Notes: generated by a model from the letters alone, not told the origin. A DNA stretch of 64,000 nucleotides from Clostridium sp. CAG:568 (GCA_000434395.1 FR878803.1:13172-77171); one strand, 5' to 3'. Shown: positions 3,257-25,047, counted from the stretch's first letter. A program made the numbers and translations.

Positions 3257-3257
3257 T

Positions 3258-5749: not shown

Positions 5750-5780
5750 CACTAATATATGTGGATAGATAGTCAAAAGA

Positions 5781-5810
5781 AAATCAAAAAAATCCACCAA
5801 AGGTGGATTT
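5781..5810 (-). terminator. rho-independent terminator after the SMC-like gene
   Basis: Perfect 9-bp stem AAATCCACC/GGTGGATTT with a 3-nt loop, followed on the minus strand by UUUUUUGAUUUUCUUUU. Located in the 21 nt between the SMC-like stop and comFA. Confidence 0.7.
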
Positions 5811-8800: not shown

Positions 8801-9307
8801 AGATTTGTAATTCTCACTGACAAATCTACTGAATTCCTTATAAGTCAAAGGACGAGGGGAAGACTTAGCATCTAACAAATCTTTGTTAGTGAAATTATTT
8901 GACGGGAATCCTGTATTCAAATAGAAGAAATGTCTATCGTCATGACCATCTGAAAAACAGTCGAAGACAATTCCTAAAGTGAATTGAGTCTTTTTCTTAG
9001 TATCCGCAAACTCCAAGGCGATATAAGTAGTGAAACGACCAGGACGAAGAGAAACGACATTACCATCTTTAGTTTCACTGATTTCTCCACGGAGATAACC
9101 GTTTAATGTTCTTCCAGTTTTTTCATTAGCAGCTTTATTGAAGTTTCTTCCTGTCGTATCACCTAAAAGAACAGTTTGAAGAGCATCAATAATAGTTGAT
9201 TTTCCAGTTCCGTTAGCTCCTGTCAAGAAAGTTATATTTTCAATATCGACTGTAGTATTTGTAAAATAATGCCAATTGATAAGTCTAAGTTTAGTGAGCT
9301 TTATCAT
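5822..9307 (-). CDS. SMC-like ATPase of the MukB/MksB/JetC family (long coiled-coil ABC ATPase)
   Basis: 1161 aa. N-terminus LTKLRLINWHYF...FLTGANGTGKSTIIDALQ (Walker A in a MukB-like head). Long helical, coiled-coil-like middle. C-terminus RQSGGETQTPF (signature-like) and LVIFDEAFSKMD (Walker B). Sits last after kleisin-like and KITE-like genes. Confidence 0.6.
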   Translation of the reverse strand: MIKLTKLRLINWHYFTNTTVDIENITFLTGANGTGKSTIIDALQTVLLGDTTGRNFNKAANEKTGRTLNGYLRGEISETKDGNVVSLRPGRFTTYIALEFADTKKKTQFTLGIVFDCFSDGHDDRHFFYLNTGFPSNNFTNKDLLDAKSSPRPLTYKEFSRFVSENYKSDEARFFDSNEQYRQFLKTIFGNLPDKYFSLFKKSVSFVPISDISKFITEFVCDVQYKVDIVPMQKNIEQYRLLETESLRIQDKISLLKDIHEAYENYHNISTDMASFNYIHARANLEYAKRQLGDYESKVEEHRQRLDYLARQVALIDDQIRELNAEKQDYFAKKTSSSGFSLSNELSQKKANFERQIAALKVSQQNILRELKNYADSLSRQAVDFLSAFKNINLDRLGIDDRDKDELSEFSEFSNEIYDEFNSLSKACDEQSVDVLSLEHLQQEMDSYKSKGYSIYTKLEQYLYNFSNKKTELAVQLKSVHSGAKPFGPRYKQVVDDLQSRLCARHPDAYVKKFCDLVDVNDPNWATAIESCIGGNRFYVFVNPSYYNEAQRILKDLINVYDFNGVNIVDSTKVIEFMNEHPAREDSCAFLVDSKDEGAQAYSDYLLGKTKKCANFEEARESGNGLCADCTGYRGFATWYPKRVTSLFLGTRVSQGSVEGIHDEYVSIDEKISLLSSLVEKITPLTMMAIMSSNEARTYRDDLNEVENVPALEENVRRLTEQMKEGALSSVKEIDDKIHAIDEDIASLNQQKEQFTAEKGEHTSEIRRIQNEVIPEKQMAVKAGEQTISAFDPKAVEETYLPRYDKLASTMDVSQIAEEANRLFARAQSKQKSLRDNLMKTRSAYVTKYNLSYDTTDESSNETFDKELDSLSNVLLPQYTEKIAQAHANAIKEFKDDFIYKLRSLITTVQSQIKELNDALSDVRFGRDRYRFTVEPNKDYIDYYNMMMDPLLLSAGDAEDVFMEKYKDLMNQLFSLISDAQDSTSTNKEAILANIEKFTDYRTYLNFDLLVKRGTDDNAVESSLARTFKRQSGGETQTPFYISILASFAQLYRVTQDSDTLRLVIFDEAFSKMDGVRIKEAVSLLRSFGLQGLISTPAEKLRDLAKLVDEALVAIHDEKHRMSYLDLYEDKRKKIGEIKADMTQEETKVVATDDNTSNSNS

Positions 9308-9319
9308 ATTTCAATCCTC

Positions 9320-10039
9320 CTAGAAACCGACAGGTTCATTTTTGTCTGCAGTAACGACACCTTCTTTAGACTCTTCTTTGTCTTGAGTGCTTTCATATGT
9401 CTCGCCATTTGAAGAAGAACTATCTTCATTTTGTTCTTCACTACCGGTTAAGAATTTATACAATGCGTTCATCTTGGAAGTAGAAATAATATATTTTATG
9501 GAAGGAAGAATGAAGAATGAATAATTGTTATCATTGAAGGATCCTCTTCCTCTAGCGATAATATTGAAAGAAGCCAAAGTCTTCATAGCTCCGGAAATAG
9601 TTTGTAAAGACAAACGCTTAGAGGCAGTAGATAATCCCAAGTCAGAAAGCTTTTGTCTCAGCTGAGTGGAATCCATAGCCACCTGCAATACATTTGGTTG
9701 TTTTTCTAATGAATCTTCATAGAAATCTCTTAGAGTATATATGACAAATGTAGTGGCAGTATCAACTCTTTCTCTATTCTTATCCAATGCATTTCTTAAG
9801 AAAATGACGCCGCAGTCATCATCTTTTGAAATGACCATATCGATGAAATCCAAATATTCTTCGAATAAAGAATAATGTTTTTCTATAAAAGTGTAATCGT
9901 ACTGAATTTTTTCAAGACCTGTAGTGACATCATAACGTTTTCTAACTATGAAACAATGATATAAAAGATTGTTCATCGTTTCAGAAAATTGGCTCTTTTC
10001 ACCAGTTGAAAGCTTATCGTAATCCTCTTGAAATGACAT
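9320..10039 (-). CDS. MukE/MksE/JetB-like (KITE) subunit
   Basis: 239 aa, a size typical for the MukE/JetB family. Sits between the kleisin-like and SMC-like genes, with 12-nt and 17-nt intergenic gaps. Acidic C-terminal tail. Confidence 0.5.
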   Translation of the reverse strand: MSFQEDYDKLSTGEKSQFSETMNNLLYHCFIVRKRYDVTTGLEKIQYDYTFIEKHYSLFEEYLDFIDMVISKDDDCGVIFLRNALDKNRERVDTATTFVIYTLRDFYEDSLEKQPNVLQVAMDSTQLRQKLSDLGLSTASKRLSLQTISGAMKTLASFNIIARGRGSFNDNNYSFFILPSIKYIISTSKMNALYKFLTGSEEQNEDSSSSNGETYESTQDKEESKEGVVTADKNEPVGF

Positions 10040-10056
10040 AAATAAATGGCTCCTTC

Positions 10057-11529
10057 CTATTTTATCCTCAAGACATATTCCGGAATTTGATAATGTCCGT
10101 TCATCGTCTTATCATCTATTTTCTCCATAGTGAAGAATGTCGTATTGAATTCAGCTCTTACCAAAGCGAGAATCAATAGAATTAAATCATTATCTTCAAC
10201 TAATGAAATCTCACTAGTTTTTATTTCTTTTCTCGAACCGAATGCCCTTCTCATAAACGACTCTACAGCTGCTTCAGAGAATTGACTTACTTCATTGTTC
10301 AAGAAATCATTCATCAAATCGTCGCTTTCATCAGAAATATCAGGAGAAAGTTCCATGGGATCCGGCTCTTCTCTTTGTGTTCTCTTGAAAGGCATGAACA
10401 AAGATCTATCATCAAATATGGAAGCTCTATGATAATCTACAGTATCGACCATCTTAAATAACAATGGGGAATTTTCCTCATTGATGTTAGGATTCTTCTG
10501 CAATTCGCTAGCCATAGAAGAAATTATCTTTTCTAACTTTCCTTTGATAGACTTATCGCTACCCGATAGGTAATTAACCTTCTTTTGAACAGCCTCAGTG
10601 TAATCGGCATTGGCCTTGTCGATTTCATCAAAAGATTTATTCAATCTATTGAATACATCGATTACTTTATTCAAATAAGAAATGACTAAATCTGTAGCTT
10701 TAGAAACTGAAAGAGAAGAAAAAGTAGAATCCATTCTAGCTTGAGAAGCTAGTTTTGCAACGATTCTCCCATCCCTAAGCCACTTATTCAATATTTCGAC
10801 AGTAGGTCTAGAATAAAGACCTAAAGAATCATAAGTCTTCATAGGATGGTAAATAGAATCTCCTACTTCAAATTTATAATCATCAAAATGCTGTTTCAAT
10901 ACTTCGTTAGGATTGAATACATTAGTCAACTTATGATTAAAAACGATGATCGAGTGATGCAAAAGTGTAACTGATAATTCCAATTCATCAGTATTCTTTA
11001 CTGCATTAGCCAAGGATCTAAACATATAGTCATCTTCTTTTTCATCTTCAAGTTTCAATTCAGAATACGTTTGATGAACCAAAGGCATATAAGATGAAAC
11101 ATCGCTAGTCAATTCATCCAACAATTCGAGCATCTTGATAGAGTAGGACGGAAGATAGATATAATCGACACCAGTCTTATAATCCTTGTCTATTTGAAAC
11201 CAACCACAACGAGATAATTTTCTAACTACGTAAGAGAATTTATCGGCAGATAAAGTGTCTTTAACATCGACTTCTTCTTCGACTTCTCTATCATCGTCCT
11301 TATCAGTATCGATAGAAAACAAAGACATGATATCTTGTCCATTTTCTCTCAACGCATCCATATAAGAACTACGAGTGATGGAAGAACGATAAATCTTTAA
11401 GCAATGATACAAGGTGACTAAAGCATAAGCATAAACTGCTTTATACTTTCGGGATAAAGGTGCAAAAAATCCATCCGGAAGACGGTCGAAAAGACGTGCA
11501 TTGTTATTTTCGGTCATTAATTTATCCAA
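10057..11529 (-). CDS. MukF/MksF/JetA-like kleisin subunit
   Basis: 490 aa, first gene of the three-gene set. Acidic linker segments (DKDDDREVEEEVD, PDISDESDD) between predicted helical domains, as in MukF-like kleisins. The annotated start is a TTG 7-8 nt after a GGGGGA RBS; an internal ATG lies 4 codons downstream. Confidence 0.5.
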   Translation of the reverse strand: MDKLMTENNNARLFDRLPDGFFAPLSRKYKAVYAYALVTLYHCLKIYRSSITRSSYMDALRENGQDIMSLFSIDTDKDDDREVEEEVDVKDTLSADKFSYVVRKLSRCGWFQIDKDYKTGVDYIYLPSYSIKMLELLDELTSDVSSYMPLVHQTYSELKLEDEKEDDYMFRSLANAVKNTDELELSVTLLHHSIIVFNHKLTNVFNPNEVLKQHFDDYKFEVGDSIYHPMKTYDSLGLYSRPTVEILNKWLRDGRIVAKLASQARMDSTFSSLSVSKATDLVISYLNKVIDVFNRLNKSFDEIDKANADYTEAVQKKVNYLSGSDKSIKGKLEKIISSMASELQKNPNINEENSPLLFKMVDTVDYHRASIFDDRSLFMPFKRTQREEPDPMELSPDISDESDDLMNDFLNNEVSQFSEAAVESFMRRAFGSRKEIKTSEISLVEDNDLILLILALVRAEFNTTFFTMEKIDDKTMNGHYQIPEYVLRIK

Positions 11530-11717: not shown

Positions 11718-14684
11718 TTATTCTTTTTTGACTTTGTTTTTTCTTCTTCTAGCCAAATACTTGATCAATTCCCATATTCCTACGCAGATCAAAAATATTG
11801 CAATAGTAGTCATATATCCACCAAAATCAATTCCAACATCTCTCCATTGAGCTGATCTATTTGGCGTATAAAATTGAGTCAATTCACTAAAACCCGCAAC
11901 ACAGAATCCAAGAACAGAAGATATTCCTAAGCCGATGAGCATCGTCTTAATCTTATTAGTGGCAAGGAATATAAATACGACTGAGAGGAAGGCAAAAACT
12001 GCAAACAACAAATAATGACCGACCAGTTTTCTTAGCTTCTTAGCCAAGGAAGAGAACATCACACTTATATCTCTATCGATAGTCAAATCGATATAAACTG
12101 AATATTTCACCAAAGTATCGTCACTTCCCAAAGTGACTTTGAGTGTTGTTTTTCCAATATCCAACAAAGAAATGTTTCCAAATTTATCAACACTGACAAT
12201 ATTATTTGTCTTATTTCCACTTGAATCCATACATTCAAAGCTCAAGTTTTTACATGACACTTTTTCTTTGGTAGTTATCCCTATCTTATAGTTCTTTCCA
12301 TAGAACAATTTAGCTTCATATCTCTTTCCATCATCGATAGAATTGAATGTTTCAGCCTTAAATACTTTACTATTTATAGTAAAAGGTGAGACAGTATCGA
12401 CTACTTGAATTTGTTTAGTCTTTTTCAAAGAAGGATTCGATATAGGCGTTACTGTAATTGTAGATTTACCGATTTTCTTTGCTTTTCCAACCCCATTTTG
12501 ACTGATAGAAATAACTGAGGAATCAGATGAAGTAAAGCTCACATCTTTGATTGATGCATTATTATTCATACTGACATCGATATCAAATTCACTTCCCAAA
12601 GCAATCTTTGAAAAATCATCCAACCCCTTGTTATCGCCAGGATAATAACCAGCATTATATACGACATCAAAACTATCAATATCGATGAAATTTACATCGA
12701 TTGTAAAATCAAAGCTTAATAAATCGTTTTGACGAGAGGTTATTTTAAATGAAGTACTTCCTTTCTTATTTGCGAAAAATATTAATTTGTCATCGTTGCA
12801 TACAACATTGTCGTTATTTGATGAAATAGAATAGGTTCCGTCATCAAATAAAACCTCATCATTTTTAGTTCCATCTTTGAATTGCCGATTAAAAGCAAAT
12901 TCGACATTCAAAGCTTTATAATCGTGATAATCTACACTGATAGTCGAATGGTTAGATAGAAGATTGTGACCTTCATCATAAACTCTCATAGTATTAGGCT
13001 TGTCGACTATACTAAAAATCAAATCCTCAGATATAGAATTATCGAGTTTAGAAACAAATCTAAACTTAACGTTTCCAGTTTGATTATTGGTAGTGATGGA
13101 GTATTGATTGTTTGATTCGACCAATTTGACTAAATTTTCCCCTTCTCTAATTGAAACAATCCATCCAGAGTATTTAAAACTAACAGGTTCAATTGAAATA
13201 TTAGAAAAGACATTGTCATAAATTTGATTTACTAGCAATTCATTTTTATCTGATTCGTTGGAAGAAAAATAATTGCCCAAAGAAATTCCACTGACAGAAC
13301 CAGTTTGAAAGTCATTTTGATACTGATAAGTGAAAACTATAGCATTGGAAGTATCATCTTTATCGACATAAAACTTGATCTGACCACTGACATCAGAATC
13401 AGTATTAGCTTTAAAGGTAAAAGACTTATAAGAATGACTTAAACAAGTTAATCTTGTCGAATCATATTCAATTTTGTAATTATTCAGTAAATATGCTTTG
13501 GAATTTATGTTTTTATATGGGATGGAAATAGAAAAAGAGTCTATGGTAACTTTGCTGGAATAATGAGAATTGGTGTGAATCGATGGGGTATAAGATCTCT
13601 TCAATTTCGATGTGTCTATTTGATCAGAAGTCAATTTTGATTTTTCTTTGACATAGACATCAAAAGAATTAGTTTCAATCTTTGATTTATCTTTCTTCAA
13701 ATAAGACAGTTTCAAATCCTTAAACGAATTAGATTTATTCTCATCTTTAGATATGATTTTGATTTGATTACTTTTAATCGATTTAAAAAATATTCCATCC
13801 ACTGATGGAAAATGAATTTTGGTCGAATCAAAAGTAGCGTTCGCAGGTGAATATTCAATGCTGACCGATATAGAGTCACCCATACTATATAATTCATATT
13901 TTGAATTTACCGAAATAGATTCAACTTCAACCGTTTGAACAATTTTATCTTTAACATTAAAAGTTGTTGAATCTTCAAATTTGTTTATTTTAGCATAAAT
14001 TATAGCTGTTCCGGATTTCTTAAATTCGACTCTTCCATCAGAGTCAACACTACAAATAGTATCATCGCTAGAGCTAAAGGCAACTGTCGTGTAAGTGACA
14101 TTACTAGGCTCAATATGAGTTTTTAATGTATATGATTGTCCTACATAGAAAGTTTCTTTGCTAGATGGTTTATTAGTAATCACAATCGATGTTGCTAAAA
14201 CCGGATCAACAGCAATAGAGAATTTCTTTATTAGATTTGAATTTTTACTAGCTGTGAAAGTCAATTCTAAAGATGGGCTTTCCTTAATGAATGTAATTGA
14301 ATTATCAGCACCAATTGTAGCAAAGGAACTATCACAGTCAATATTGATTCCTTTAAAAGAAGTATCTTGAGGAATATAAGTAAAATTATAATAAATAGTA
14401 TCTCCGACATAAAAAGTTGAATTAGACAAATCTAAAATAATAGACTCATTTTTATCCTTATAAAAAGAAACACCGAAATCTTTTATCTCTTTTATTCTTT
14501 GACTATCATAATTGTCATTGATTTCATCCTCAAACAATCCGGTGAAATCATTACTTTGTTTAGCACTTTTACTCCCAGGCATCGCACTTTCTACAAATAT
14601 CAAAACAGCGCAAACAATGTATAAAAGTAAAAATAAATACTGAACAATGTTTTTGAAAACATTGTGTTTTTTCGCTGTTGTCAT
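11718..14684 (-). CDS. large surface protein: N-terminal signal anchor, multiple Big_2-type Ig-like domains, C-terminal VanZ-like polytopic membrane domain
   Basis: N-terminal TM segment YLFLLLYIVCAVLIFV. Big_2-like segments, e.g. VTYTTVAFSSSDDTICSVDSDGRVEFKKSGTAIIYAKIN and DVSFTSSDSSVISISQNGVGKAKKIGKSTITVTP. C-terminal 4-TM region containing GFSELTQFYTPNRSAQWRDVGIDFGG, which matches the VanZ-family DE.HQ.F.PGR....DV.ID..G motif. Confidence 0.55.
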   Translation of the reverse strand: MTTAKKHNVFKNIVQYLFLLLYIVCAVLIFVESAMPGSKSAKQSNDFTGLFEDEINDNYDSQRIKEIKDFGVSFYKDKNESIILDLSNSTFYVGDTIYYNFTYIPQDTSFKGINIDCDSSFATIGADNSITFIKESPSLELTFTASKNSNLIKKFSIAVDPVLATSIVITNKPSSKETFYVGQSYTLKTHIEPSNVTYTTVAFSSSDDTICSVDSDGRVEFKKSGTAIIYAKINKFEDSTTFNVKDKIVQTVEVESISVNSKYELYSMGDSISVSIEYSPANATFDSTKIHFPSVDGIFFKSIKSNQIKIISKDENKSNSFKDLKLSYLKKDKSKIETNSFDVYVKEKSKLTSDQIDTSKLKRSYTPSIHTNSHYSSKVTIDSFSISIPYKNINSKAYLLNNYKIEYDSTRLTCLSHSYKSFTFKANTDSDVSGQIKFYVDKDDTSNAIVFTYQYQNDFQTGSVSGISLGNYFSSNESDKNELLVNQIYDNVFSNISIEPVSFKYSGWIVSIREGENLVKLVESNNQYSITTNNQTGNVKFRFVSKLDNSISEDLIFSIVDKPNTMRVYDEGHNLLSNHSTISVDYHDYKALNVEFAFNRQFKDGTKNDEVLFDDGTYSISSNNDNVVCNDDKLIFFANKKGSTSFKITSRQNDLLSFDFTIDVNFIDIDSFDVVYNAGYYPGDNKGLDDFSKIALGSEFDIDVSMNNNASIKDVSFTSSDSSVISISQNGVGKAKKIGKSTITVTPISNPSLKKTKQIQVVDTVSPFTINSKVFKAETFNSIDDGKRYEAKLFYGKNYKIGITTKEKVSCKNLSFECMDSSGNKTNNIVSVDKFGNISLLDIGKTTLKVTLGSDDTLVKYSVYIDLTIDRDISVMFSSLAKKLRKLVGHYLLFAVFAFLSVVFIFLATNKIKTMLIGLGISSVLGFCVAGFSELTQFYTPNRSAQWRDVGIDFGGYMTTIAIFLICVGIWELIKYLARRRKNKVKKE

Positions 14685-14709
14685 TAAGATTTATCCAATC
14701 GTAATATAA

Positions 14710-15891
14710 CTAATCAGACCATCTAGCAAACAAAGAAATCGTATGATTGACTATTGTTAAATCAGTGAATTGCCCTGAATTGACATCATCTCTAGATGTG
14801 TACCATCCTTTGAAAGTATGTCCGTTTTTCTTAATCACAGGAAATTCATCCAAATCGACGTAACTTCCCCCATTGACTTTAATAGGATAAATATTTGTCC
14901 CTAGGGCTTTTTCAGTACCATCAGAATCCTTGAAATAAAGAGTTTCACTACTATCAGTCAAAGCGTTGAAATAAACAAAATACTTTTGACTTTCATTTGA
15001 AGAGGAACCTTTGATGGAGAATATCTCAGACCACGCTCCATTCTCTTTCGTATAAACCCCACCAGTGCTGATGTTCAAATAGAAATCACCATCATTACCA
15101 AAGCTTCCTGCAGGTATATCGCTTCCGTATCTCCAAGTAGAACCATCTTTTCCATCTTTAGTCTTTTGAATAAAGAAATAACTCCAAGCACCACTCTCAT
15201 AATTGACTTTAAAAATCCAATCATTCTTATGAGAATTGTTGATCATTTCCAATTCTTCATTATCAGCATTATCGACTGTTACCATATCGATACTAGAAAT
15301 TGAATCACCTTGTTCACCTTTTTTTATAGTAACAACTTTACTGGTATCATTTGTCAATTTAATTGTCACTACAGTGTCGCCAGAATCATCGATATTAGTT
15401 TCAATATCGGCGATTCCAACACCATCAATTCCGTCTTTTCCACCAGGAATTGTAAATTTGTCTGAACTATTATCAGTATAAGTAATAGTTACATTCAAAT
15501 CATTGCTGCCTTCAACTTGATTTATGACTACATCGGATATTCCTTTTCCGTCTTTTGGACCGGGAATTGTCACTATAGTATCATCAATGCTTGAATCAGT
15601 ATAATGAATTGTCAATGTGGTGGATTTATCCTCATTTTCAACTGCATCAACTGAGGCGATTCCAACACCTTCCTTTCCCGAGATTCCAGCTGGGATAGTA
15701 AACTTGGTCGGAGTAGCTTCTTCATCAGTATAAGTGATTGTAACGATGACATTTCCGTTCTCATCACTATCATGAGTGACAGACTTGATCTGCAAAGCTT
15801 GATCAGTATTGAAAAAAGAACACGAAGCTAACGGCATCAATCCAATAGACATAGAAGCACATAACACAGCGATTAATCTTTTCATTTTCAT
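14710..15891 (-). CDS. lipoprotein with three ~35-aa internal repeats and a C-terminal Listeria/Bacteroides (Flg_new) repeat domain
   Basis: Signal peptide plus lipobox MPLASC. Repeats TIPAGISGKEGVGIASVDAVE / TIPGPKDGKGISDVVINQVE / TIPGGKDGIDGVGIADIE. C-terminus NGHTFKGWYTSRDD...LFARW fits the Flg_new repeat. Confidence 0.55.
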   Translation of the reverse strand: MKMKRLIAVLCASMSIGLMPLASCSFFNTDQALQIKSVTHDSDENGNVIVTITYTDEEATPTKFTIPAGISGKEGVGIASVDAVENEDKSTTLTIHYTDSSIDDTIVTIPGPKDGKGISDVVINQVEGSNDLNVTITYTDNSSDKFTIPGGKDGIDGVGIADIETNIDDSGDTVVTIKLTNDTSKVVTIKKGEQGDSISSIDMVTVDNADNEELEMINNSHKNDWIFKVNYESGAWSYFFIQKTKDGKDGSTWRYGSDIPAGSFGNDGDFYLNISTGGVYTKENGAWSEIFSIKGSSSNESQKYFVYFNALTDSSETLYFKDSDGTEKALGTNIYPIKVNGGSYVDLDEFPVIKKNGHTFKGWYTSRDDVNSGQFTDLTIVNHTISLFARWSD

Positions 15892-18365
15892 ATACCTTTA
15901 CCTCCCCTGAGGTCGTCCGATGGACTTTGATCAAATAGATACGGCTTTTCTCCTTCATTCAAATTCAACTTACCATTCGAATAGAAGTAGAACGGATGTG
16001 AGCCTGTGACACAAAGAACAGCTCTAGCTAACGCTGCGGCTATAGAATTAGTATATCCGCCACTGAAATAAGACTTTAACATATCTAGTGTCTCCTTCTT
16101 AGAAAAGATCATATTCGAATCAGAAGATTCAATCTCAACATCCGAACTATTCAATCCTCCACCATAGAAGACGACAGCAGTATTCAAATAGTTCTTATCA
16201 TTTATTTTATACAAATATCCGTTGGATTCAGCTAATTTTTTTAATACATCCTTAACTTTGAAGAAATCATCTATGGACATTCCTTCATAGTCCTTTCCAA
16301 GACTTGCTAACAACAACGATAGTTGCTCATAAATCAATGCTGAAGTCATAATATCATCTATGTCCTTCCAATCATAGAACAAGCTATTTCCAGTAATATT
16401 TAATTTGATGGGATAGCTAGTTCCACCGATTTGATCATATTTACAAGTCATTCCCATGCTTCCTAATAGTCCAATGATAGAAGTAGGAGAGCCGTTATAC
16501 ATCATAGGTCCATTGAAGGATGTCTCGACACCTATTGAGAATACACCTGAATTTGCAAATGATGTATCCTTGACATTTATTACAGCATCGTATTTCTTAG
16601 AGCCGTTAGAATCGATTATATTCTCATCATTATCTAATCCATTTTGGATACTTTCAAATGTCTTTCCTGATGATTGAGAAGACTGACTCAATCCATCCAT
16701 CAAAATCGATTGAACCATATTATCCATATTGAATCCATCATTGGCATCACCTTGGCTGTCATAATAACTAGTGAATTGACTAGTCTTTATACTTCCATCT
16801 GACATCACAATAGAAGCTTCTTTGCTTTTATCTACTTTATTTTCTAAATTACTTCCCACCAATAGCAAGAATTCACCCGAGTCTTTCAAAATAGAATTAT
16901 CTATTGTCAATCCATCAGTGGAAAATGCACGTATTATATTCTTACCATTGGACAAAACACTATTTTGAACAGTGTCATTTTTTCCGCTCACCTCTAGTAC
17001 TGTACCAGTATAAAAGTAATTGTACATTTCATTTTGTGCATCTGAATTTTGGATTCTTATATTATCTAAAGTGATATTGTCTCCATCCAACAATAATCCG
17101 ACATTGTCTTGAGCATAAGCTTCAACAAAAGGATTTGTCGATATATCACCTATTCCTATATAAGGAAGAGGTCCATGGAAATAATCCTTATTAGCATCAG
17201 GAACAATAATTCCATTTCTATTCTTATCAGGAAGTCCATTTCTAGGGAAAGCTAGATTATTCAAATTGATGGTAAATCCATTCCCATAAAAATCTTTTTG
17301 CGCTCTTATTCCAGCAATTAATTTCTTTGAAATAGGTTCAATCAAAGCATCTTTATTAGTCTCATTAAATTCATCGATATAAGTTGTGTGATATGTGGAT
17401 TCAAATTCATAGTATTCATTCGAGAAAGAAAATGAATCAGTGTCAAAGCTATAATTTCCAAATAGTTTGTCAGTCTTAGCATCTGATTTAAGTTCGTTTT
17501 TATATAAAATCCTTTTTTCATTGCTAGGGTCCACTCCACTAGCAACATATACATCTGCTAAAGATCCTAGCGATGTCTGCATAACAGCTGGATGACCAGT
17601 CGAAGATTTGTTGGTGCACATCAACAAATCGTTATAGTTATAAACATTGACACCGTCTTTGACTATATTGAATCTATAAGTATTTGAAACATTATCATCT
17701 AAAGAACTGACAAATGTTATGAACGCATCTCCATGCCCATTAAAGGAAATCTCCTTAGAGCCATCATCGAAAGATATATTGTCCGATTTCGATAAAACCC
17801 TATAGGAACTATGTTCGTCAGTATCTATGACGCATTGAATATCGAGCTTAATCTTTGAAGCGACTGTATGTAATCCATCATATTCCAATGAAGAATAAGA
17901 GGGATCGTATTGACCAAAATCCAAGTATGATTTAGAACTTTGTCCACTTACATTTCCTTTATAATTGACGATGATCACACCTTTATCATAACAATATGCG
18001 TGGAAAGTTTTAGAAACAGTCTTCTTCTCATTAGAACAAGTCACATCTATCTCGCCCTCATTATTGACTTTAAGATTGAAATTATCATCATTTTGCACAA
18101 TCTCTGCCACATCATCCGAGGATGAATTAGATAAAGACCAAATTAAATCATTACCATCAGCTAAAATATTATTAGGATTGCTGACAGGAGTAGCTTCTAA
18201 CTTATATGTGTTATTGGTCTTAAACCCCTCATTTTGCCTATAATTCCAAGATATATCTGAAATATCTACTGCAACAGCACGAGTCAAAATTGTCACTGTC
18301 ACAAAAGAGAGAATACCCAAGAGGAATGGAATGATAAGAAGGATGACTAAAGTTTTTCTTTTCAT
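15888..18365 (-). CDS. secreted or surface protein with a probable right-handed parallel beta-helix region
   Basis: N-terminal signal anchor KTLVILLIIPFLLGILSFVTVTIL. The central region has PbH1-like repeats (NSVLSNGKNIIRAFSTDGLTIDNSILKDSGEFLLLVGSN). 4-nt overlaps with both neighbouring genes. Confidence 0.4.
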   Translation of the reverse strand: MKRKTLVILLIIPFLLGILSFVTVTILTRAVAVDISDISWNYRQNEGFKTNNTYKLEATPVSNPNNILADGNDLIWSLSNSSSDDVAEIVQNDDNFNLKVNNEGEIDVTCSNEKKTVSKTFHAYCYDKGVIIVNYKGNVSGQSSKSYLDFGQYDPSYSSLEYDGLHTVASKIKLDIQCVIDTDEHSSYRVLSKSDNISFDDGSKEISFNGHGDAFITFVSSLDDNVSNTYRFNIVKDGVNVYNYNDLLMCTNKSSTGHPAVMQTSLGSLADVYVASGVDPSNEKRILYKNELKSDAKTDKLFGNYSFDTDSFSFSNEYYEFESTYHTTYIDEFNETNKDALIEPISKKLIAGIRAQKDFYGNGFTINLNNLAFPRNGLPDKNRNGIIVPDANKDYFHGPLPYIGIGDISTNPFVEAYAQDNVGLLLDGDNITLDNIRIQNSDAQNEMYNYFYTGTVLEVSGKNDTVQNSVLSNGKNIIRAFSTDGLTIDNSILKDSGEFLLLVGSNLENKVDKSKEASIVMSDGSIKTSQFTSYYDSQGDANDGFNMDNMVQSILMDGLSQSSQSSGKTFESIQNGLDNDENIIDSNGSKKYDAVINVKDTSFANSGVFSIGVETSFNGPMMYNGSPTSIIGLLGSMGMTCKYDQIGGTSYPIKLNITGNSLFYDWKDIDDIMTSALIYEQLSLLLASLGKDYEGMSIDDFFKVKDVLKKLAESNGYLYKINDKNYLNTAVVFYGGGLNSSDVEIESSDSNMIFSKKETLDMLKSYFSGGYTNSIAAALARAVLCVTGSHPFYFYSNGKLNLNEGEKPYLFDQSPSDDLRGGKGI

Positions 18366-19966
18366 ATGTTTCTAACCTCCATCTTTTTAAAATAGGTAGA
18401 ACTTTTCTTTAAGAAGAAAACCATGACAAGAATAGATAAAATAAAAGTCAAACCTAAATCAAAATACAATATTCCAACTCCTTTCATAATCGTGAAATCA
18501 AATCCGATATCAACCAACACCAACAACATCGGATAAACTATTACACTATATGAAAACAAAGTAGAGAATTTCTTCTTCACCGCACCTAAATCATGCATAT
18601 CCATGATGACACCGCCAAAATTCATTATAACTAATAGCAACAATCCTATAAACAAGAAGAAAAAGAATGACGATAAGGTTATGTTATCGGTCAAATAACA
18701 AGCCAGGACAGTTATAAAATATGAAATAGAAGTCAAAGATAAAGGAATTAATACTTTAGTCAGTGTGATCAATTTATCATTGATTGGCAACAACTTCACA
18801 TTCATCAAATTCTGACCTTCCACAGAAAAAGAAGACGATCCACTTGAATGAATGACTAAAACAAACTCTAAGAGCAATAACATTTGTATCAAAGTCATCA
18901 TGTCTGGAACGAACATCAATAAGACTCTAAGATTCTTTTGGAGAATTGTATTTATAGAAGATAAGACAGCAAAGGATAAGAAAGGCAGCATTATCAACAA
19001 AGCAGTATAAGAAAATGTGTTTCCACTATTTCTAAAGATAAGCATCAATTCTTTCTTAATAAGACCTTTCTTCATATCGCCTATAGACTTGTATTTTCCA
19101 CCGGTTTTATTCTTATTGTGATCATCTCTTTGATTTATAATCGTATAAAAAGTAACAGACAAGAAATATCCGATTACCAAAAACAAGAGAAGAAGACCTA
19201 AAGAGATCAATACACAAGAAAGAATATTTTTAAATTTTATAACGGGAGAAAGAATAGAATAAACAGGAAGAAGGAAAGGGCACATACCATCTATGGCTTT
19301 AATGAACATAGAGGAGAATATATCCTTAAAAGAATAGTTATCTAACACTTTGAGAAAGAGGTTTAAACAAACTTGATATAAATAACAAAGACCTACGACT
19401 ATCAAACTAGCACAAATAAACTGGAGCCATTCTTTATTTTGAAGAAACTTATATATAACTTGTACCAGTACGACTAAAGTAAATATCACACCGATTGAAA
19501 ATAAGGAAATAATGAATGGATATAAAATACAAAAGACGTAATAATAAGGGATAAATTGCCTAAGAGCTCCATAAGTGACAAGGATAGGAAAAGACATTAT
19601 AAAAGACTCTATCACTTGATATAAATAGACATAAATCATCTTAGCTATGATTTTACTATCAGTACTTATGCATAAAGGAGCAAGAATCATAGAATCTTTC
19701 TTGTCGAACATTACTTTTCTAGCTCTGACTAATCCTTCTATTATTCCTAAAATAAACGTAATAAAAATAGAAAAGACTAAGAAATCAAAACTAGAGTCAG
19801 CGGAATAAGCGCTAATCTTTGTATCTAATGAGTAAGTTAAATAAGAAATTAGAGCAATCAAAAGACAAGCTGCTATAGTTTTTAACAATATAGCTATCAA
19901 AGTGGATTTATTGCCACTTCTAGCCTTAGCCAATTTAAATTCCTTATTGACTAACTCAATAATCAT
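18362..19966 (-). CDS. ABC-2 type transporter permease (polytopic membrane protein)
   Basis: 534 aa and almost entirely hydrophobic, with more than 10 predicted TM helices. Overlaps the upstream ABC ATPase stop by 4 nt. Confidence 0.55.
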   Translation of the reverse strand: MIIELVNKEFKLAKARSGNKSTLIAILLKTIAACLLIALISYLTYSLDTKISAYSADSSFDFLVFSIFITFILGIIEGLVRARKVMFDKKDSMILAPLCISTDSKIIAKMIYVYLYQVIESFIMSFPILVTYGALRQFIPYYYVFCILYPFIISLFSIGVIFTLVVLVQVIYKFLQNKEWLQFICASLIVVGLCYLYQVCLNLFLKVLDNYSFKDIFSSMFIKAIDGMCPFLLPVYSILSPVIKFKNILSCVLISLGLLLLFLVIGYFLSVTFYTIINQRDDHNKNKTGGKYKSIGDMKKGLIKKELMLIFRNSGNTFSYTALLIMLPFLSFAVLSSINTILQKNLRVLLMFVPDMMTLIQMLLLLEFVLVIHSSGSSSFSVEGQNLMNVKLLPINDKLITLTKVLIPLSLTSISYFITVLACYLTDNITLSSFFFFLFIGLLLLVIMNFGGVIMDMHDLGAVKKKFSTLFSYSVIVYPMLLVLVDIGFDFTIMKGVGILYFDLGLTFILSILVMVFFLKKSSTYFKKMEVRNI

Positions 19967-20733
19967 TTTTTATCTCCTTTATATATGGAGAAGAACAAAT
20001 TCCTCATATCCGTCTTCAAATAAGGATTACGAGATGTTAAATCAAAGGTAGTTTGAATAACACCGTTATTCAAAAGACACGCCTTTGTAGCCACATCAAA
20101 AATGAAATCTATACTATGTGAAACTATTAAAATTCCTTTCTTAGCTCTCTTAAAGTCGTTTATTACATCGACCAAAGTCTTATAGACCATAATATCCAAT
20201 CCGACTGTAGGCTCATCCAACACCCAAAGATCTGGGTTATGGATGATAGAAGCCATCAATGCCACTTTTTGTTTCATACCATGAGAATACTCACTGATAC
20301 GTCTCTTCATATCAAATTCAGGCATATCAAATTTGATCAGCAACGCCTGATAATTCCTATGGAATACCTCATCGATCATCTGATAAGATGAACCGATGAA
20401 TTTCAAATATTCCTCACCTGTCATCATCTCATAGAGGATAGGTTCAGATGGAACATATCCTAAATTCAATTTAAAATTAATTGGATCTTTATCCAAATCC
20501 AATCCATCCAATTTAACGATTCCGTCATTCTTTGTTTTCAAACCGACAATACAATCCAAGGTAGTTGATTTACCAATACCATTCTTACCAAAAAGACAAT
20601 AGCATTCACCTGGATTAACCATGAATGACAATTCATTTACAACAACACGTTTACCATAGGATTTAACCAATTTCTCGACTTGAAGAATCGGTTCTATTTC
20701 AACTGGATTTTTTTCATTCTTTTCCTCTTCCAT
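19963..20733 (-). CDS. ABC transporter ATP-binding protein
   Basis: Walker A GKNGIGKST, signature SHGMKQKVALMASI, Walker B LWVLDEPTVGLD, H-loop SHS. Confidence 0.8.
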   Translation of the reverse strand: MEEEKNEKNPVEIEPILQVEKLVKSYGKRVVVNELSFMVNPGECYCLFGKNGIGKSTTLDCIVGLKTKNDGIVKLDGLDLDKDPINFKLNLGYVPSEPILYEMMTGEEYLKFIGSSYQMIDEVFHRNYQALLIKFDMPEFDMKRRISEYSHGMKQKVALMASIIHNPDLWVLDEPTVGLDIMVYKTLVDVINDFKRAKKGILIVSHSIDFIFDVATKACLLNNGVIQTTFDLTSRNPYLKTDMRNLFFSIYKGDKK

Positions 20734-20736
20734 AGA

Positions 20737-22137
20737 TCAATCCTCCTTTCTTAAAATACTCTTTATCCAGAGATTAAATGAGTCATCTTCATTTTTAAAA
20801 TAAGACATACTGGAATCACAATTCAAGCAATGAGCCTTAGTTCCAAAGTTATAAACATTCCTACTTCCACATACAGGGCAGACTTCGAATATGTTCTTCA
20901 CTTTAAAGACAAGTCCTAAACTTTTTATTAGATTCATAAGACTAGTTTGATCGTTCTTATAATATGAAGATACAAGAATCTTATTGTAATAATTAGATTT
21001 GTTAGAAGCAGTTATAAAAATAGAATTATCAAATATCTTCTCATCATTCTTCTTTTTAGTTCTAATAGGCTTTAATGATTTTCTATCAACTTTTCTAATC
21101 ATGTGGATTATAGAACTACTCTTCTCACCTTTGTAATCTAAATCAATAATCAACGATAGATCAGCTCCTTCTTTCAATGAGTAAGTCATCTGATCTTTCA
21201 CAAATACGATAGGATTAAATTCTATAAAGCCATCCTTATTCATTTTGAATATTTGTCCATCTAGATCAACACCACATGTGTCCAACAAGTTCAACAGCCT
21301 CAAGACAATAAAGTTGAAATAACTTTTATCCATACAATCAGAAGGATAGTTTTGATTCAAATAATTATCTAAATAAAATTTATAACAGTAAGAATAAAGA
21401 GGGTTATGAATCAAGACATTTGTAGGAATTATGTCTTTCTTAATTTTATAAGGAGAAACAAATTTATAAAATTTGCTAGATTTAATAAACTTAATATATT
21501 TCTTGGCCTTGCCTAGTTTTTCAGTGAAGTCCGGTCTCTTGTCAGGAATATCATAGAATTCTCTATCGATAGGTCCTTTAAATAAAGGTAATTCATTTAA
21601 GAATGAATGAGATGAATAAGTTAAAGAAGGCATTTCATAAGATTCAGCCAGCGAAGAGAAATAATCTTCTTCCATTAAAGAGAAATCATCGATGTCTTCG
21701 CTCAGTAAATCTACTAGTAGACAAATAAACTTGTTTTCATACATAATGACAGAATCTATAGATTCACTAGTATGAACAAATTCAGGGATTTTTTCACCAT
21801 TTTTTTCTTTCCAAAGAGAAATATCTCTCATCGTATCGATAAAACCTTTTTGGTCTAAGCTTGATACTAAATCACTTCTCTTCACCAATCTTTCACTATC
21901 AGTTTTAAAGACAGGCTTTCTAACGATGGATAAGATTCTTTCCAAAACCTTTGTTAAAGAATCTATTTTATCTAAGGCATCTTTGAAATTTAATTCTTCA
22001 TCAGAAGGCAATACATACTGCTTATTCTTTATTAAATCCTTGAGATTCCTAAAATTTGTAGGCTTTGAAAACACGCTCCAAGTCCTGGAGTAGAACGATC
22101 TCAGTACACCAACATTTTTCTTAGTTTTCAAGTCCAT
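20737..22137 (-). CDS. hypothetical protein with a C-terminal C4 zinc ribbon; possible nuclease-like partner of the upstream McrB-like ATPase
   Basis: 466 aa. C-terminus CPVCGSRNVYNFGTKAHCLNCD. Acidic motif EGADLSLIIDLDYKGEK, which could be a PD-(D/E)xK or a Toprim-like DxDxxG motif. Starts 10 nt after the McrB-like gene stop. Confidence 0.35.
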   Translation of the reverse strand: MDLKTKKNVGVLRSFYSRTWSVFSKPTNFRNLKDLIKNKQYVLPSDEELNFKDALDKIDSLTKVLERILSIVRKPVFKTDSERLVKRSDLVSSLDQKGFIDTMRDISLWKEKNGEKIPEFVHTSESIDSVIMYENKFICLLVDLLSEDIDDFSLMEEDYFSSLAESYEMPSLTYSSHSFLNELPLFKGPIDREFYDIPDKRPDFTEKLGKAKKYIKFIKSSKFYKFVSPYKIKKDIIPTNVLIHNPLYSYCYKFYLDNYLNQNYPSDCMDKSYFNFIVLRLLNLLDTCGVDLDGQIFKMNKDGFIEFNPIVFVKDQMTYSLKEGADLSLIIDLDYKGEKSSSIIHMIRKVDRKSLKPIRTKKKNDEKIFDNSIFITASNKSNYYNKILVSSYYKNDQTSLMNLIKSLGLVFKVKNIFEVCPVCGSRNVYNFGTKAHCLNCDSSMSYFKNEDDSFNLWIKSILRKED

Positions 22138-22147
22138 ATAACAAAGA

Positions 22148-23977
22148 TTAAAGCTTTCTCATAAATTTCTTAACTTCACTTCTAGTTAGCATAAAGGAAT
22201 TGACGCCATAAGTATCGTCGATCAAAGACAACAATGAACTCAATCCTTCCTTGACATAATCTTCAAATCTTCCATCCAATTTAGAAATAACTTTTCTAGA
22301 GAACAAGAAATCCAAAGCTTCTTCCTTAGTTCCTCCGAGAGCGACAAATACAGGAACAAAGTTATCGATTTGATTTAAAATACGGTTACCAAATGTGATA
22401 TCGAATGTATCATTTACGAAGTCAGTGATAGTAGAGAATTTTTTATAATCATCTTCACTCATCCTATTCTCCACGGTAGATTTAGCAGTATCAAACTTTT
22501 TGTTTAAATCATCGTAGGAAATCATAATAGGATCAGAATCACCATCGACAACAAAAGGCTCATTTCTTCCATCGAAAGAAATAGTAATAGCACGGTCATA
22601 AACCTTATCAGTAATTGTGTAGGTTGAATCATCTTTATTTGCAGTTCCGATAAACCATGTATTTTCTGGAATATGTAATTCACCATTTATCAAATGCTCA
22701 GGTGCTTCAAACCCATAAGGCAATTGCATAATATGCAAAATCCACTTATCCTTTGGATATTCCAAAATAGAAAGAAAATCAGCAAAATAATATTCGACAC
22801 GAGCAATATTGATTTCATCCAAAACCATAATGTTAACATGATTCGATTGATAGGTCATTTTATATAGTCTTTGAATAAAAGGTGTTTCGTTATAACGCTT
22901 GGAGAAATCGTTATAGTAACCTAGCAATGAAGTTCTATCACGCCATGAAGCCTGAACCGGAGCAAAGAATGAATCTTCTCCGATAAATGTAGAGAAATAA
23001 CGAGCTATTGATGATTTTCCTGTTCCTGACAATCCTTCCAAAATAATCAATCTAGAGACAGAAAGACCAGCTAGGAACGAACGAATCGTTCTTATGTCAA
23101 AATATAATCCTTCTTGTTTAGCTAAATAATTTCTAAATCTATCTGCCATATCCTTCAAAGAAATGCCGTTTTCAGGAATATTTTGAGCAGAAATTGTATC
23201 CAGCGACTCCTTATCTATTGAGCATAATCCAGGAAAAACATATTCTTTGGTTCCAAGAGACACTTCATTTGTAGAACCATTAGCCCCAGCATTGTTAGAA
23301 GAAACACAATTTGTATTTATTTTAGGAAGATCAACACCAAGAATATCAGACAATTCTCCTTGTTCTTCTCTCTTCTTTTCGACTTCTTCGTCTCTTTGTT
23401 CTTCGAAATCATCATATTCTTCGGTTTTAAAGAATCTATAAGGCTTATCGATGTTTCTAAAGTTGATGAAAATAGCACATATTGAAAATATAAACGCTGC
23501 AACAAAGATTCCAATTATCAATGTGAACAATAACACTTCACCTAAAAACTTGAAACTAAGCGTTAGGTTGGTAGCAAAAGTGACTGAATCAGTTCCAATA
23601 GGAAGTTGACAAACAAGTGATATTCCAAGCCATAATGCAGCACAAAGCAAACCGGTTACTATATATGTAATCACCCATTTTCTTGTGTGAATTTTATTGT
23701 CATAGAATTTTGCCATTCTCATTTCAAATATAAATGCTGCAGCAAAAATAAATGCATATATAGCAAACAAATAAATCATAATCCATGCATTGAATGCTGC
23801 ATTTATCATGTTGTTCGATCCAAACAATGATTCAGCCATCATATGTATGGGATTCTTTGAACTGAATATTGAATTCTTAGCATCCAAGCATCCAGCAATA
23901 CAAACAAACAACAAACAATAAAGGAAAACTATTGATATTGCTATCCAATTTTTTCTTGTAATATGAACTTTTTTCAT
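22148..23977 (-). CDS. AAA+ ATPase of the McrB/AAA_5 family fused to an N-terminal 4-5 TM membrane domain
   Basis: N-terminal 190 aa hydrophobic. The cytoplasmic part has Walker A LEGLSGTGKSS, the McrB-type Walker B / sensor VNIMVLDEINIARVEYYFADFLSILE, and FIGTANKDDSTYTITDKVYDRAITISF (McrB-like TxN...D.A.hRRF region). Confidence 0.5.
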   Translation of the reverse strand: MKKVHITRKNWIAISIVFLYCLLFVCIAGCLDAKNSIFSSKNPIHMMAESLFGSNNMINAAFNAWIMIYLFAIYAFIFAAAFIFEMRMAKFYDNKIHTRKWVITYIVTGLLCAALWLGISLVCQLPIGTDSVTFATNLTLSFKFLGEVLLFTLIIGIFVAAFIFSICAIFINFRNIDKPYRFFKTEEYDDFEEQRDEEVEKKREEQGELSDILGVDLPKINTNCVSSNNAGANGSTNEVSLGTKEYVFPGLCSIDKESLDTISAQNIPENGISLKDMADRFRNYLAKQEGLYFDIRTIRSFLAGLSVSRLIILEGLSGTGKSSIARYFSTFIGEDSFFAPVQASWRDRTSLLGYYNDFSKRYNETPFIQRLYKMTYQSNHVNIMVLDEINIARVEYYFADFLSILEYPKDKWILHIMQLPYGFEAPEHLINGELHIPENTWFIGTANKDDSTYTITDKVYDRAITISFDGRNEPFVVDGDSDPIMISYDDLNKKFDTAKSTVENRMSEDDYKKFSTITDFVNDTFDITFGNRILNQIDNFVPVFVALGGTKEEALDFLFSRKVISKLDGRFEDYVKEGLSSLLSLIDDTYGVNSFMLTRSEVKKFMRKL

Positions 23978-24045
23978 GTTTTATATTCTCCTATCTTTAG
24001 ACAAACTTACAAACACTAGCGATTTATTTAGAATTATAATCAAAC

Positions 24046-25047
24046 CTAAGAACCATCACTAGAAACCTCAGATTTAGATTTATCTTCACCCATATCAGTC
24101 TCATCATCAACTTTCTTTTTTTCGATAAGCTTGTCATTTGCAAATAAATACGATTCACCTTTGAACACAAGTTTTTCATATGATGTCTGTTCGACATCTT
24201 CACTGCTGTCATACTCCGCTGAAAATGGTAATGTGTTTAATAAGAAATCAGTTTTTTTAGAAATGGATTTTTGATATTTATCGCTATAGTATTCATACAT
24301 ACCAAAGCAATATAAGACACAGAAAATAGTAATAATTCCAGAATTGCTTTGAAGGAACACTATGAACGCTCCAACTCCTTGAATTCTAAAGTTTGTGTAA
24401 TAACCTACAATGCGATCATAAGAAAGCGATTCTTTATATTGAGATCCGACATCAGAAGCATTATTAGAGTCACCTTGAGTTATGAATGTTTTGGTGCCAT
24501 CATTTTCTTTAATTTCGATAACACGGTGAACAATCACAATATTTTCATCGTTTCTATAAGCTACAACATCATAGAGCTTCACTTGATCAACATCTTTGTA
24601 CTTTTGAATTTGAATAATGTCATACGTGTTGAATTGATTATTCAAATTATTAGTTTTCAAATACGTATTTGCCTCATTTTGTTGACTCATAGATCCAGAA
24701 CCTATGACCACCATCGCCTTATCTCCAATCATAGTCACACCAGATGTAAATCTGTTAACCAAGGAATAAATGAAGAAAGCAGCAACAACTCCAAGAATCA
24801 AATAGGAAATAACCTTTCCGACAATTCTCATTGCTTTTCTTCTCTTGCTTTTTTCAAGTTTGGTTTCTTCAATTACATTGTCTAAGAGATACAAATCATC
24901 TTCGCCATTCTCTATGGTATGAATTTGAGATAAAAAATAATGTCTAAATAAAAATGTAAAAACCAATGAAAATGATAGAAGACAAACTATAGTTACAATC
25001 AAAGAAATAATTTCTAGTGTTTGCATTAATATATCCCTAAGCGGCAA
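24046..25047 (-). CDS. SipW-like (ER/archaeal-type, S26B) signal peptidase I with a C-terminal extension
   Basis: Nucleophile box VVIGSGSMSQ, His box IVHRVIEI (a Ser/His dyad rather than Ser/Lys), GDNN-type box ITQGDSNNASD. The catalytic domain is flanked by TM segments. Confidence 0.65.
   Translation of the reverse strand: MPLRDILMQTLEIISLIVTIVCLLSFSLVFTFLFRHYFLSQIHTIENGEDDLYLLDNVIEETKLEKSKRRKAMRIVGKVISYLILGVVAAFFIYSLVNRFTSGVTMIGDKAMVVIGSGSMSQQNEANTYLKTNNLNNQFNTYDIIQIQKYKDVDQVKLYDVVAYRNDENIVIVHRVIEIKENDGTKTFITQGDSNNASDVGSQYKESLSYDRIVGYYTNFRIQGVGAFIVFLQSNSGIITIFCVLYCFGMYEYYSDKYQKSISKKTDFLLNTLPFSAEYDSSEDVEQTSYEKLVFKGESYLFANDKLIEKKKVDDETDMGEDKSKSEVSSDGS

Follow-up and report, generated by a model that had tools for sequence, protein, structure and literature searches.

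Two neighbouring genes on the minus strand of a 64,000-nucleotide stretch of DNA from Clostridium sp. CAG:568 (GCA_000434395.1 FR878803.1:13172-77171; hereafter ‘the window’, with coordinates counted from its first letter) are the subject of this report. Gene A (22148–23977) encodes a protein of 609 residues that comprises a domain of four transmembrane (TM) helices, an acidic helix, a disordered linker, a McrB-type GTPase of the ‘NxD’ clade (see below), and a C-terminal helical domain. Gene B (20737–22137) encodes a McrC-like protein of 466 residues, with a DUF2357-type helical bundle carrying a β-finger, a β-rich domain, and a Cys4 zinc ribbon. Among restriction enzymes that depend on GTP, McrBC is the textbook case. 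The A–B pair is derived from McrB and McrC and appears to have been taken over for a task at the membrane. Both reading frames, the 10 nucleotides (nt) between them, and all sequence strings quoted for the two proteins are as described in an initial annotation that a model had made from the sequence alone.

A and B are real genes and not chance open reading frames (ORFs), given the large numbers of homologues and the AGGAG ribosome-binding site upstream of A. Protein A has more than 4,269 homologues, the top 120 of which are all full-length and 50–98% identical. A word-index search recovered merely seven, then nine, homologues of B, because B evolves fast; an exhaustive hidden Markov model search, used instead, yielded 589 family representatives at 50% clustering, 195 of them with E≤1e-30. 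Genomic context was surveyed in 87 related loci obtained from look-ups of encoding contigs and from a metagenome scan, with ORFs assigned to classes by BLASTP comparison, for which proteins of the window and of loci L001, L003, and L005–L007 served as references. Across the loci, mean identity to the window proteins is 46% for A versus 27% for B. Gene B lies directly 3′ of A in all 76 loci that have at least 900 nt of downstream sequence, and the zinc-ribbon protein is thus, as initially proposed, a dedicated partner. The start of B, which follows the stop codon of A after the 10-nt gap and lacks a ribosome-binding site of its own, fits a presumptive translational coupling to A.

The membrane-bound GTPase and its McrC-like partner

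Kyte–Doolittle analysis of protein A reveals hydrophobic segments at residues 8–35, 58–89, 101–129, and 137–176, and the AlphaFold2 model (pLDDT 75.8) has long helices at 8–31, 62–93, 99–123, and 131–174. The membrane domain (residues 8–176; 23450–23956) therefore contains four TM helices; the initial annotation had recognised the domain and allowed for four or five helices, of which the lower number stands. Lysine and arginine residues are concentrated at the N-terminus and in the loop 85–102, so that, by the positive-inside rule, an N-in/C-in topology with a cytoplasmic GTPase is predicted. About four N-terminal TM segments are found in essentially all A homologues of the 87 loci, including distant ones and every class of genomic context. 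With a value of 0.85, the GTPase core is the most conserved part of the protein; the cytoplasmic loops reach 0.72 and 0.82 and the outside loops 0.47 and 0.27. That the cytoplasmic loops are better conserved than those outside suggests that the membrane domain does more than anchor the protein.

In the model, the TM helices are followed by an acidic helix (approximately residues 184–206), a disordered linker rich in Gly, Ser, and Asn (205–238), a conserved VFPGLCxID motif, the AAA+ core, and the helical C-terminal domain; several loops have low confidence. The core harbours a Walker A motif (GLSGTGKSS, residues 315–323; 23009–23035, coordinates checked), a Walker B motif (MVLDEIN, residues 384–390; 22808–22828), and the signature motif TANKDDST (residues 445–452; 22622–22645), an NxD variant of the NxxD motif of McrB. 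In 26 homologues, GLSGTGKSS, MVLDExN (including D387 and E388), the block TAN-K-D-(D/E)-ST, and DKVYDRA are invariant; within the block, this applies to N447, K448, and D449, while position 450 is either D or E. The pattern TAN[KQT]D[DE]ST recurs in approximately 90% of the 87 related loci. The strings on which the initial assignment to McrB had been based begin at residues 318 (GTGKSS), 385 (VLDEINIARVEYYFADFLSILE), 442 (FIGTANKDD), and 461 (DRAITISF).

This assignment is borne out. In a phmmer search of all PDB sequences with protein A, McrB is the sole match (E=3e-6, residues 291–463), and among NCBIfam models, too, only McrB is matched, with the equivalog NF008457 reaching 24.7 bits against a cut-off of 637 and covering the GTPase core only. 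Pfam AAA_5 is matched by all 26 members of the A family. In a major branch of McrBC systems, NxxD is shortened to NxD, usually followed by E or a second D (Bell et al. 2024, PMC11090510); N447-K-D449-D450 of protein A fits this definition. In BLASTP comparisons with CnuB of R. leguminosarum (TBC54486.1, from the supplement to the same paper), the segment from Walker A to Walker B is 41% identical (E=2e-26), and the NxD segment 29% (E=7e-9), a far better match than that to E. coli McrB. By these sequence relationships, protein A is a McrB-family GTPase of the NxD branch to which CoCoNuT and CoCoPALM systems belong, and partner-stimulated binding and hydrolysis of GTP are predicted.

Protein B is devoid of hydrophobic segments by Kyte–Doolittle analysis. 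Its AlphaFold2 model (pLDDT 75.6, pTM 0.68) consists, in order, of a helical bundle, a hairpin (109–123), helices up to residue 287, an α/β domain (296–413), and a four-stranded zinc ribbon. Residues 58–150 (21688–21966) align with Pfam DUF2357, the N-terminal domain of McrC, in orthologues. Five of nine orthologues match this family (the three shown individually exceed the gathering cut-off of 23.3 bits, the best with 46 bits and E=5.2e-12), as do 36 of 65 family representatives. The window’s own protein stays below the threshold, yet aligns throughout with orthologues above it. Within this part, residues 105–123 (21769–21825) form a predicted β-hairpin ‘finger’ with modelled strands at 109–112, 115–118, and 120–123.

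Conservation was counted in 60 distinct B proteins from the related loci and in 147 family representatives. Conserved sites are confined to three places. The first is the DUF2357 part, with W109 (99–100%) and K110 (K or R in 93–97%) in the finger, E119, D128, and the invariant Y133-E134-N135; the second is a central block, F223-Y224...T239-N240...Y248. The third is the zinc ribbon (residues 418–460; 20758–20886), C420-P-x-C423...C437-x-x-C440 followed by a conserved W457, in which the four Cys residues are 98–100% and P421 91–97% conserved. The ribbon has weak matches to zinc-ribbon Pfam families, and includes CPVCG (from residue 420) and CLNC (from 437).

The beta-rich alpha/beta domain between the central block and the ribbon (residues 296–413; 20899–21252) is possibly a degenerate PD-(D/E)xK fold. 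No column in residues 285–415 reaches 50% acidic or 50% basic residues among the 147 representatives, and for this reason no nuclease active site is recognisable. No nuclease Pfam family is matched by any of the 65 representatives, and a search of PDB sequences with the B family profile returned zinc-ribbon noise only.

A candidate catalytic site of PD-(D/E)xK or Toprim type had been seen initially in the acidic motif EGADLSLIIDLDYKGEK (residues 323–339; 21121–21171). The motif is present but lies in the most variable part of the protein and is altered already in orthologues of 45–50% identity (e.g. HAGK-MAFKIDLVYKGFK and EESS-LAFSFEVTYKGEV), and this proposal is rejected.

Protein B, as far as its sequence and those of its relatives tell, is a McrC homologue that has kept the activator part and the zinc ribbon and has no recognisable nuclease active site. 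Its description as a ‘non-canonical’ partner does not apply to the N-terminus, since the family carries DUF2357. Neither a nuclease active site nor a nuclease fold could be shown, which weakens a reading of the pair as a restriction system. In McrBC structures, an Arg or Lys residue in the McrC finger contacts the Asp of the signature motif and triggers GTP hydrolysis (PMC11090510). By analogy, K110 of protein B is a candidate for this residue.

The surface operon and related loci

Eight co-directional, tightly packed genes form a cluster in the window (11718–25047, minus strand), with A in second and B in third place. The first gene (24046–25047) encodes a SipW-like signal peptidase I of the archaeal/ER type with 333 residues (56.6 bits with TIGR02228 sigpep_I_arch, whose cut-off is 51.85, and E=3.8e-15 with the SipW model), and ends 68 nt before A. 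Three nucleotides after B, a gene for an ABC transporter ATP-binding protein begins (19963–20733; 256 residues; Pfam ABC_tran, 9.9e-26), which overlaps by 4 nt with that for a polytopic permease (18362–19966; 534 residues). Hydropathy predicts about 10–12 TM segments in the permease; its position is conserved, and its homologue in locus L006 carries PF09847 (12TM_1). After another 4-nt overlap follows the gene for an extracellular protein of 825 residues with an N-terminal signal or anchor (15888–18365), recognised by its single N-terminal TM segment. This protein is possibly a β-helix, as its orthologue in L001 has a weak Beta_helix match, and it keeps its position in at least 43 loci.

Two genes of the operon remain. 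A lipoprotein of 393 residues (14710–15891; 4-nt overlap with the preceding gene) contains a Listeria–Bacteroides (Flg_new) repeat (Pfam Flg_new, 1e-4; TIGR02543), and its lipobox, LASC, can be read straight from the sequence. Ahead of the Flg_new repeat, units of approximately 35 residues with Gly-rich turns are repeated (GISGKEGVGIASV, GPKDGKGISDV, GGKDGIDGVGIADI, KGEQGDSISSI). The last gene, after a gap of 25 nt, encodes a protein of 988 residues (11718–14684), in which an N-terminal TM segment and several Ig-like Big_2 repeats (Pfam, 1.3e-10) precede a C-terminal multi-TM VanZ domain (1.5e-9); this is an unusual fusion. A scan of the cluster for promoters and terminators gave nothing above the expectation from shuffled sequence, and no excess of internal terminator-like sites.

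This gene order is widely shared. Contigs with 98% identity to the locus originate from human gut metagenomes, and every named homologue belongs to a metagenome-assembled genome that is labelled Bacilli or Bacillota bacterium. Of the 76 related loci with enough sequence, 59 have a SipW-like gene immediately before A, and an ABC ATPase gene follows B in 49 of the 64 with room for one; the survey of neighbourhoods proposed in the initial annotation finds the pair conserved together, usually in the context of ABC transporter genes. In the majority class, the order is one to six small subunits, SipW, A, B, ABC ATPase, permease, the protein of ~820 residues, a Flg_new/374-residue protein, another small subunit, and, last, a large protein of Big_2 type. 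This order is maintained down to 35–38% identity in A. The identities of all operon members co-vary with that of A (Spearman 0.63–0.81), and A is the best-conserved protein of the operon, with the ABC ATPase next.

The small subunits, encoded upstream of the SipW-like gene in L001, L003, L006, and L011–L069, are paralogous, secreted or anchored proteins of 205–310 residues, present in one to six copies per operon. Their N-terminus is rich in Lys and Arg, and their hydrophobic stretch ends in G-F-(A/S)-x-W-(V/I) in 127 of 148 cases, versus 24 of 2,257 background ORFs; a C-terminal motif, F-x-W-G-x-x-F...N-P, is also shared. None matches a Pfam or NCBIfam family, TasA/Peptidase_M73 and models of SipW-cognate signals included. 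In the PDB, an archaeal type IV pilin is the best match, at a non-significant E=0.035. From these sequence features, they are candidate filament subunits.

Three further contexts are found. In L005, L007, and L061, A (~560 residues) and B (~460 residues) are located behind a gene for a secreted protein with collagen repeats (GDKGDTG). In L078 and L087, A (~545 residues) and B (~445 residues) come right after genes of a type IV pilus, which encode N_methyl pilins, Peptidase_A24, T2SSF, and T2SSE/MshEN; in L084, such a cluster is nearby, and a protein of 945 residues with GAP1-N2 and GAP1-M domains (GTPase-associated protein 1) is encoded between the gene for a PilB-like ATPase and A–B (2945–5782 of that locus). 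In the fourth context (L074, L076, L080, and L081), larger forms of A (800–870 residues) and B (1,047–1,190 residues) occupy a conserved site after gatCAB-galE. The distant B homologues of L076 (11144–14716) and L080 (11018–14389), with 1,123–1,190 residues, contain a GNAT acetyltransferase domain and, after the zinc ribbon, two copies of a repeat of ~150 residues with Pro/Glu/Lys-rich linkers between them; their A partners (852–867 residues) have a long low-complexity N-terminal extension ahead of the four TM helices. No relative was found among 2.9 million viral contigs, and PHROGs gave no meaningful match.

Directly 3′ of the surface operon, the window contains a JetABC-like locus (5822–11529, minus strand), which encodes JetA (PF18982, E=1.2e-70), a JetB-like DUF4194 protein, and an SMC/JetC-like ATPase of 1,161 residues. 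No gene for a JetD/Toprim nuclease follows the JetC-like gene in the window. The locus is, by sequence, a Wadjet-like or MksBEF-type condensin that lacks the cleaving subunit. Beyond it (3994–5800, minus strand) lies the gene for a ComFA-like DEAD/ResIII helicase, whose N-terminal segment is rich in Cys, and after it that for a ComFC-like protein of phosphoribosyltransferase fold with N-terminal CxxC...CxxC. These two form a competence-type DNA-uptake pair, approximately 16 kb from A–B.

Comparison with known systems

The closest known kind to the A–B pair is CoCoPALM. This class of McrB-like GTPases, associated with the membrane and linked to signal peptidases, is named in one paragraph of Bell et al. 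2024 (PMC11090510) and has never been characterised. The initial annotation had presented a membrane-anchored McrB-like motor as unusual; such signal peptidase-linked GTPases had already been noted in 2024. A literature search found no later paper on CoCoPALM. Compared by published description only, the two have in common an NxD-type McrB GTPase with an N-terminal membrane segment and a paired McrC homologue. Both are associated with genes of the signal peptidase family, here the SipW-like gene upstream of A in the window and in most related loci, and pilus assembly genes (a cluster with prepilin peptidase, PilB, and PilC) lie beside other relatives of A–B. In neither case is there evidence of a classical restriction role.

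There are also differences. CoCoPALM, as published, has an FtsB-like single TM segment plus coiled coil on the McrB component, and coiled coils on both proteins. Protein A instead has four TM helices and an acidic helix of ~20 residues, and no FtsB/DivIC Pfam family is matched at E≤0.01. No extended coiled coil is seen in the AlphaFold2 models of A and B, judged from the models and not by a dedicated coiled-coil predictor; the longest helices are a TM helix in A (131–174) and a helix inside the DUF2357 bundle of B (127–164). The peptidase in the window is of SipW type (S26), and the paper mentions neither an ABC exporter nor large surface proteins, both of which are encoded in the operon.

CoCoNuT systems (CnuB/CnuC), NxD-clade derivatives of McrBC that are predicted to target RNA (PMC11090510), are related through both proteins. 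CnuB is the closest match to the GTPase core of A, with a common block LDExNxARVEYYFADFLSxLE and the N-x-D-(D/E) motif. Several McrC homologues of the NxD clade are composed of DUF2357, a frequently inactivated PD-(D/E)xK domain, and a CPxC zinc ribbon (PMC11090510), and the parts of protein B stand in the same order as those of the CoCoNuT McrC homologue. In contrast to CoCoNuTs, the A–B pair lacks a long coiled coil, a nuclease partner (HEPN or other), CSD, YTH, and Hsp70-like domains, and an Ig-like N-terminal domain on B. Moreover, A is membrane-embedded, and the genes lie among those for surface proteins and secretion and not among defence or restriction–modification genes.

Classical McrBC, as in E. 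coli K-12 and T. gammatolerans, differs as follows: A has four TM helices in place of the N-terminal DNA-binding domain and an NxD instead of an NxxD motif, and B is without the catalytic residues of PD-(D/E)xK nucleases. A–B is not an E. coli-type McrBC system; both the DNA-binding N-terminal domain and a nuclease with catalytic residues were looked for in the pair and not found.

Outside the McrBC family, the gene neighbourhood recalls tapA-sipW-tasA of B. subtilis, in which a SipW-type peptidase processes fibre subunits (PMC9245690), and archaeal bundling pili. As in these systems, a dedicated SipW-type peptidase stands beside secreted, β-rich, filament-type subunits in relatives of A–B. 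TasA systems, however, have neither an NTPase nor an ABC exporter, the small subunits of the relatives match neither TasA nor camelysin, and the window has no gene for a small subunit. Components of type IV pilus or Com machinery (a PilB-type ATPase, PilC, prepilin peptidase, or N-methyl pilins) are also missing from the operon in the window.

A probable role in surface assembly, and alternatives

With a probability of roughly 0.6, A and B form a GTP-driven membrane module for the export, extraction, or assembly of surface filaments or surface proteins, and not a restriction system. This reading draws on the lack of a DNA-binding domain and of a recognisable nuclease site, the coupling to an exporter, and the SipW-like peptidase and surface proteins that flank the pair, and also on the fact that independent lineages place A–B beside pilins or a collagen-like fibre protein. 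The initial annotation had offered two functions, restriction or defence on the one hand and, on the other, a motor that is coupled to the exporter and surface proteins encoded next to it; the conserved gene order fits the latter.

By analogy with McrBC structures summarised in PMC11090510, A would assemble into a hexameric ring on the membrane, which would bring together 24 TM helices, and the finger of B would insert into this ring. K110 of B may then stimulate GTP hydrolysis via D449 of the N-K-D motif, in the way McrC does for McrB. The resulting movement would act on the membrane domain or on client proteins instead of DNA, so that A–B could energise or gate export, membrane extraction, or assembly, beside signal cleavage by the SipW-like peptidase and transport by the ABC exporter. 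The zinc ribbon and the degenerate domain of B would act as an adaptor or regulatory module and not as a nuclease.

A more ambitious version of this scheme is tentative, and on balance doubtful. According to it, monoderm gut Bacilli possess a machine for filament assembly or secretion that has so far gone unrecognised and is independent of both type IV pili and sortase; A–B would be the motor of this machine, in which the GTP-driven 24-helix hexamer would extract or thread pilin-like subunits or large surface proteins that are cleaved by SipW, with assistance from the ABC transporter.

Several observations weigh against a role in surface assembly. The functional link is drawn from gene order, and the substrates of the motor are putative. 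The small secreted subunit genes common among relatives are absent from the window (all 64 kb were searched) and likewise from the 98% identical relatives L008–L010; in this species, SipW and A–B would need to have as clients either the large operon proteins or products of genes at other sites. Further points concern defence. The GTPase core of A, and only the core, matches PDC-M26A, a defence-candidate model of PADLOC (E=4.7e-41), so that candidate defence systems do include near relatives of the motor, and the JetABC-like locus begins just downstream of the cluster, at a distance of 190 nt. TM effectors are common in defence systems. Given the descent of the pair from McrBC and the frequency of nuclease-dead McrC homologues among the CoCoNuT systems, which are themselves predicted to serve in defence, A–B might be a membrane-resident derivative of type IV restriction. 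Protein B would sense foreign nucleic acid and activate A, upon which the 24-helix domain would depolarise the membrane in abortive infection, or an unlinked nuclease would be recruited. This is unlikely. The PDC models of PADLOC are unpublished and unvalidated candidates (no paper on PDC-M26 was found), B has no match in PADLOC-DB at E≤0.1, and no complete system model is matched. The JetABC locus has no JetD, and is not conserved beside the cluster in other genera. The pair has a fixed place in a co-diverging surface operon across 35–98% identity, with A the most conserved member, a pattern that typifies core functions with vertical inheritance, as opposed to defence islands; the viral contigs, as noted, hold no relative.

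The zinc ribbon of B and its possible nuclease-like fold would also suit nucleic-acid binding, a further point against the role in surface assembly. Protein B could accordingly be conceived as a DNA- or RNA-binding subunit and A as a translocase or switch, in a housekeeping process at the membrane such as DNA uptake with a competence-type pilus or membrane-tethered control of the expression of the surface operon. Such nucleic-acid handling is decidedly unlikely: most loci (the 59 of 76) have SipW and the ABC exporter with no pilus ATPase or competence genes nearby, the C-terminal domain of B has no conserved basic residues that would suggest a nucleic-acid-binding surface, and the ComFA/ComFC-like genes of the window are 16 kb away, with the JetABC-like genes in between.

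The assignment of A to McrB is somewhat complicated by structure comparison. Foldseek with the full-length model of A ranks MCM, RavA, BrxL, and NorQ first (E 5e-5 to 1e-3, TM≤0.33), McrB is not among the top 50 matches, and the family profile of A matches McrB among PDB sequences only at E=0.16, more weakly than the single sequence does. MCM, RavA, BrxL, NorQ, and McrB all fall within one AAA+ super-clade. For this reason, and because loops of the model have low confidence, the sequence evidence and the partner gene were given more weight than the ranking. The same ranking, with MoxR-type proteins (RavA, NorQ, CbbQ) and other clade-7 AAA+ proteins at the top, could be taken to mean that the synteny is only historical and that A–B is an independent AAA+ machine for quality control or remodelling of membrane proteins, FtsH- or MoxR-like in its logic. 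The relatives in the fourth context, which lie between gatCAB/galE and unrelated membrane proteins without a surface cluster, would agree with this. It is nevertheless very improbable, as the 3-nt gap and the 4-nt overlaps translationally couple B to the ABC genes and beyond, three independent contexts all include secreted filament-type proteins, and a DUF2357 partner is specific to McrBC-type systems.

If the more ambitious, filament-machine version of surface assembly holds, the motor of a restriction enzyme that once moved DNA has been exapted for the transfer of proteins across the membrane or out of it. In the derivative found in the window, which belongs to an abundant human-gut lineage, the motor and its activator finger are retained, the DNA-binding domain has been swapped for a membrane domain, and any recognisable nuclease site has been lost. 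Defence finders keyed on McrB-like cores, as exemplified by PDC-M26A of PADLOC, will probably over-call such loci as immune systems. If the link to the surface operon is functional, a defence motor would have been taken over for envelope biogenesis; A–B would then be the first case in which the CoCoPALM class, so far only a name, becomes concrete and open to testing, and would reveal a new pathway by which uncultured gut Bacilli assemble surface structures.

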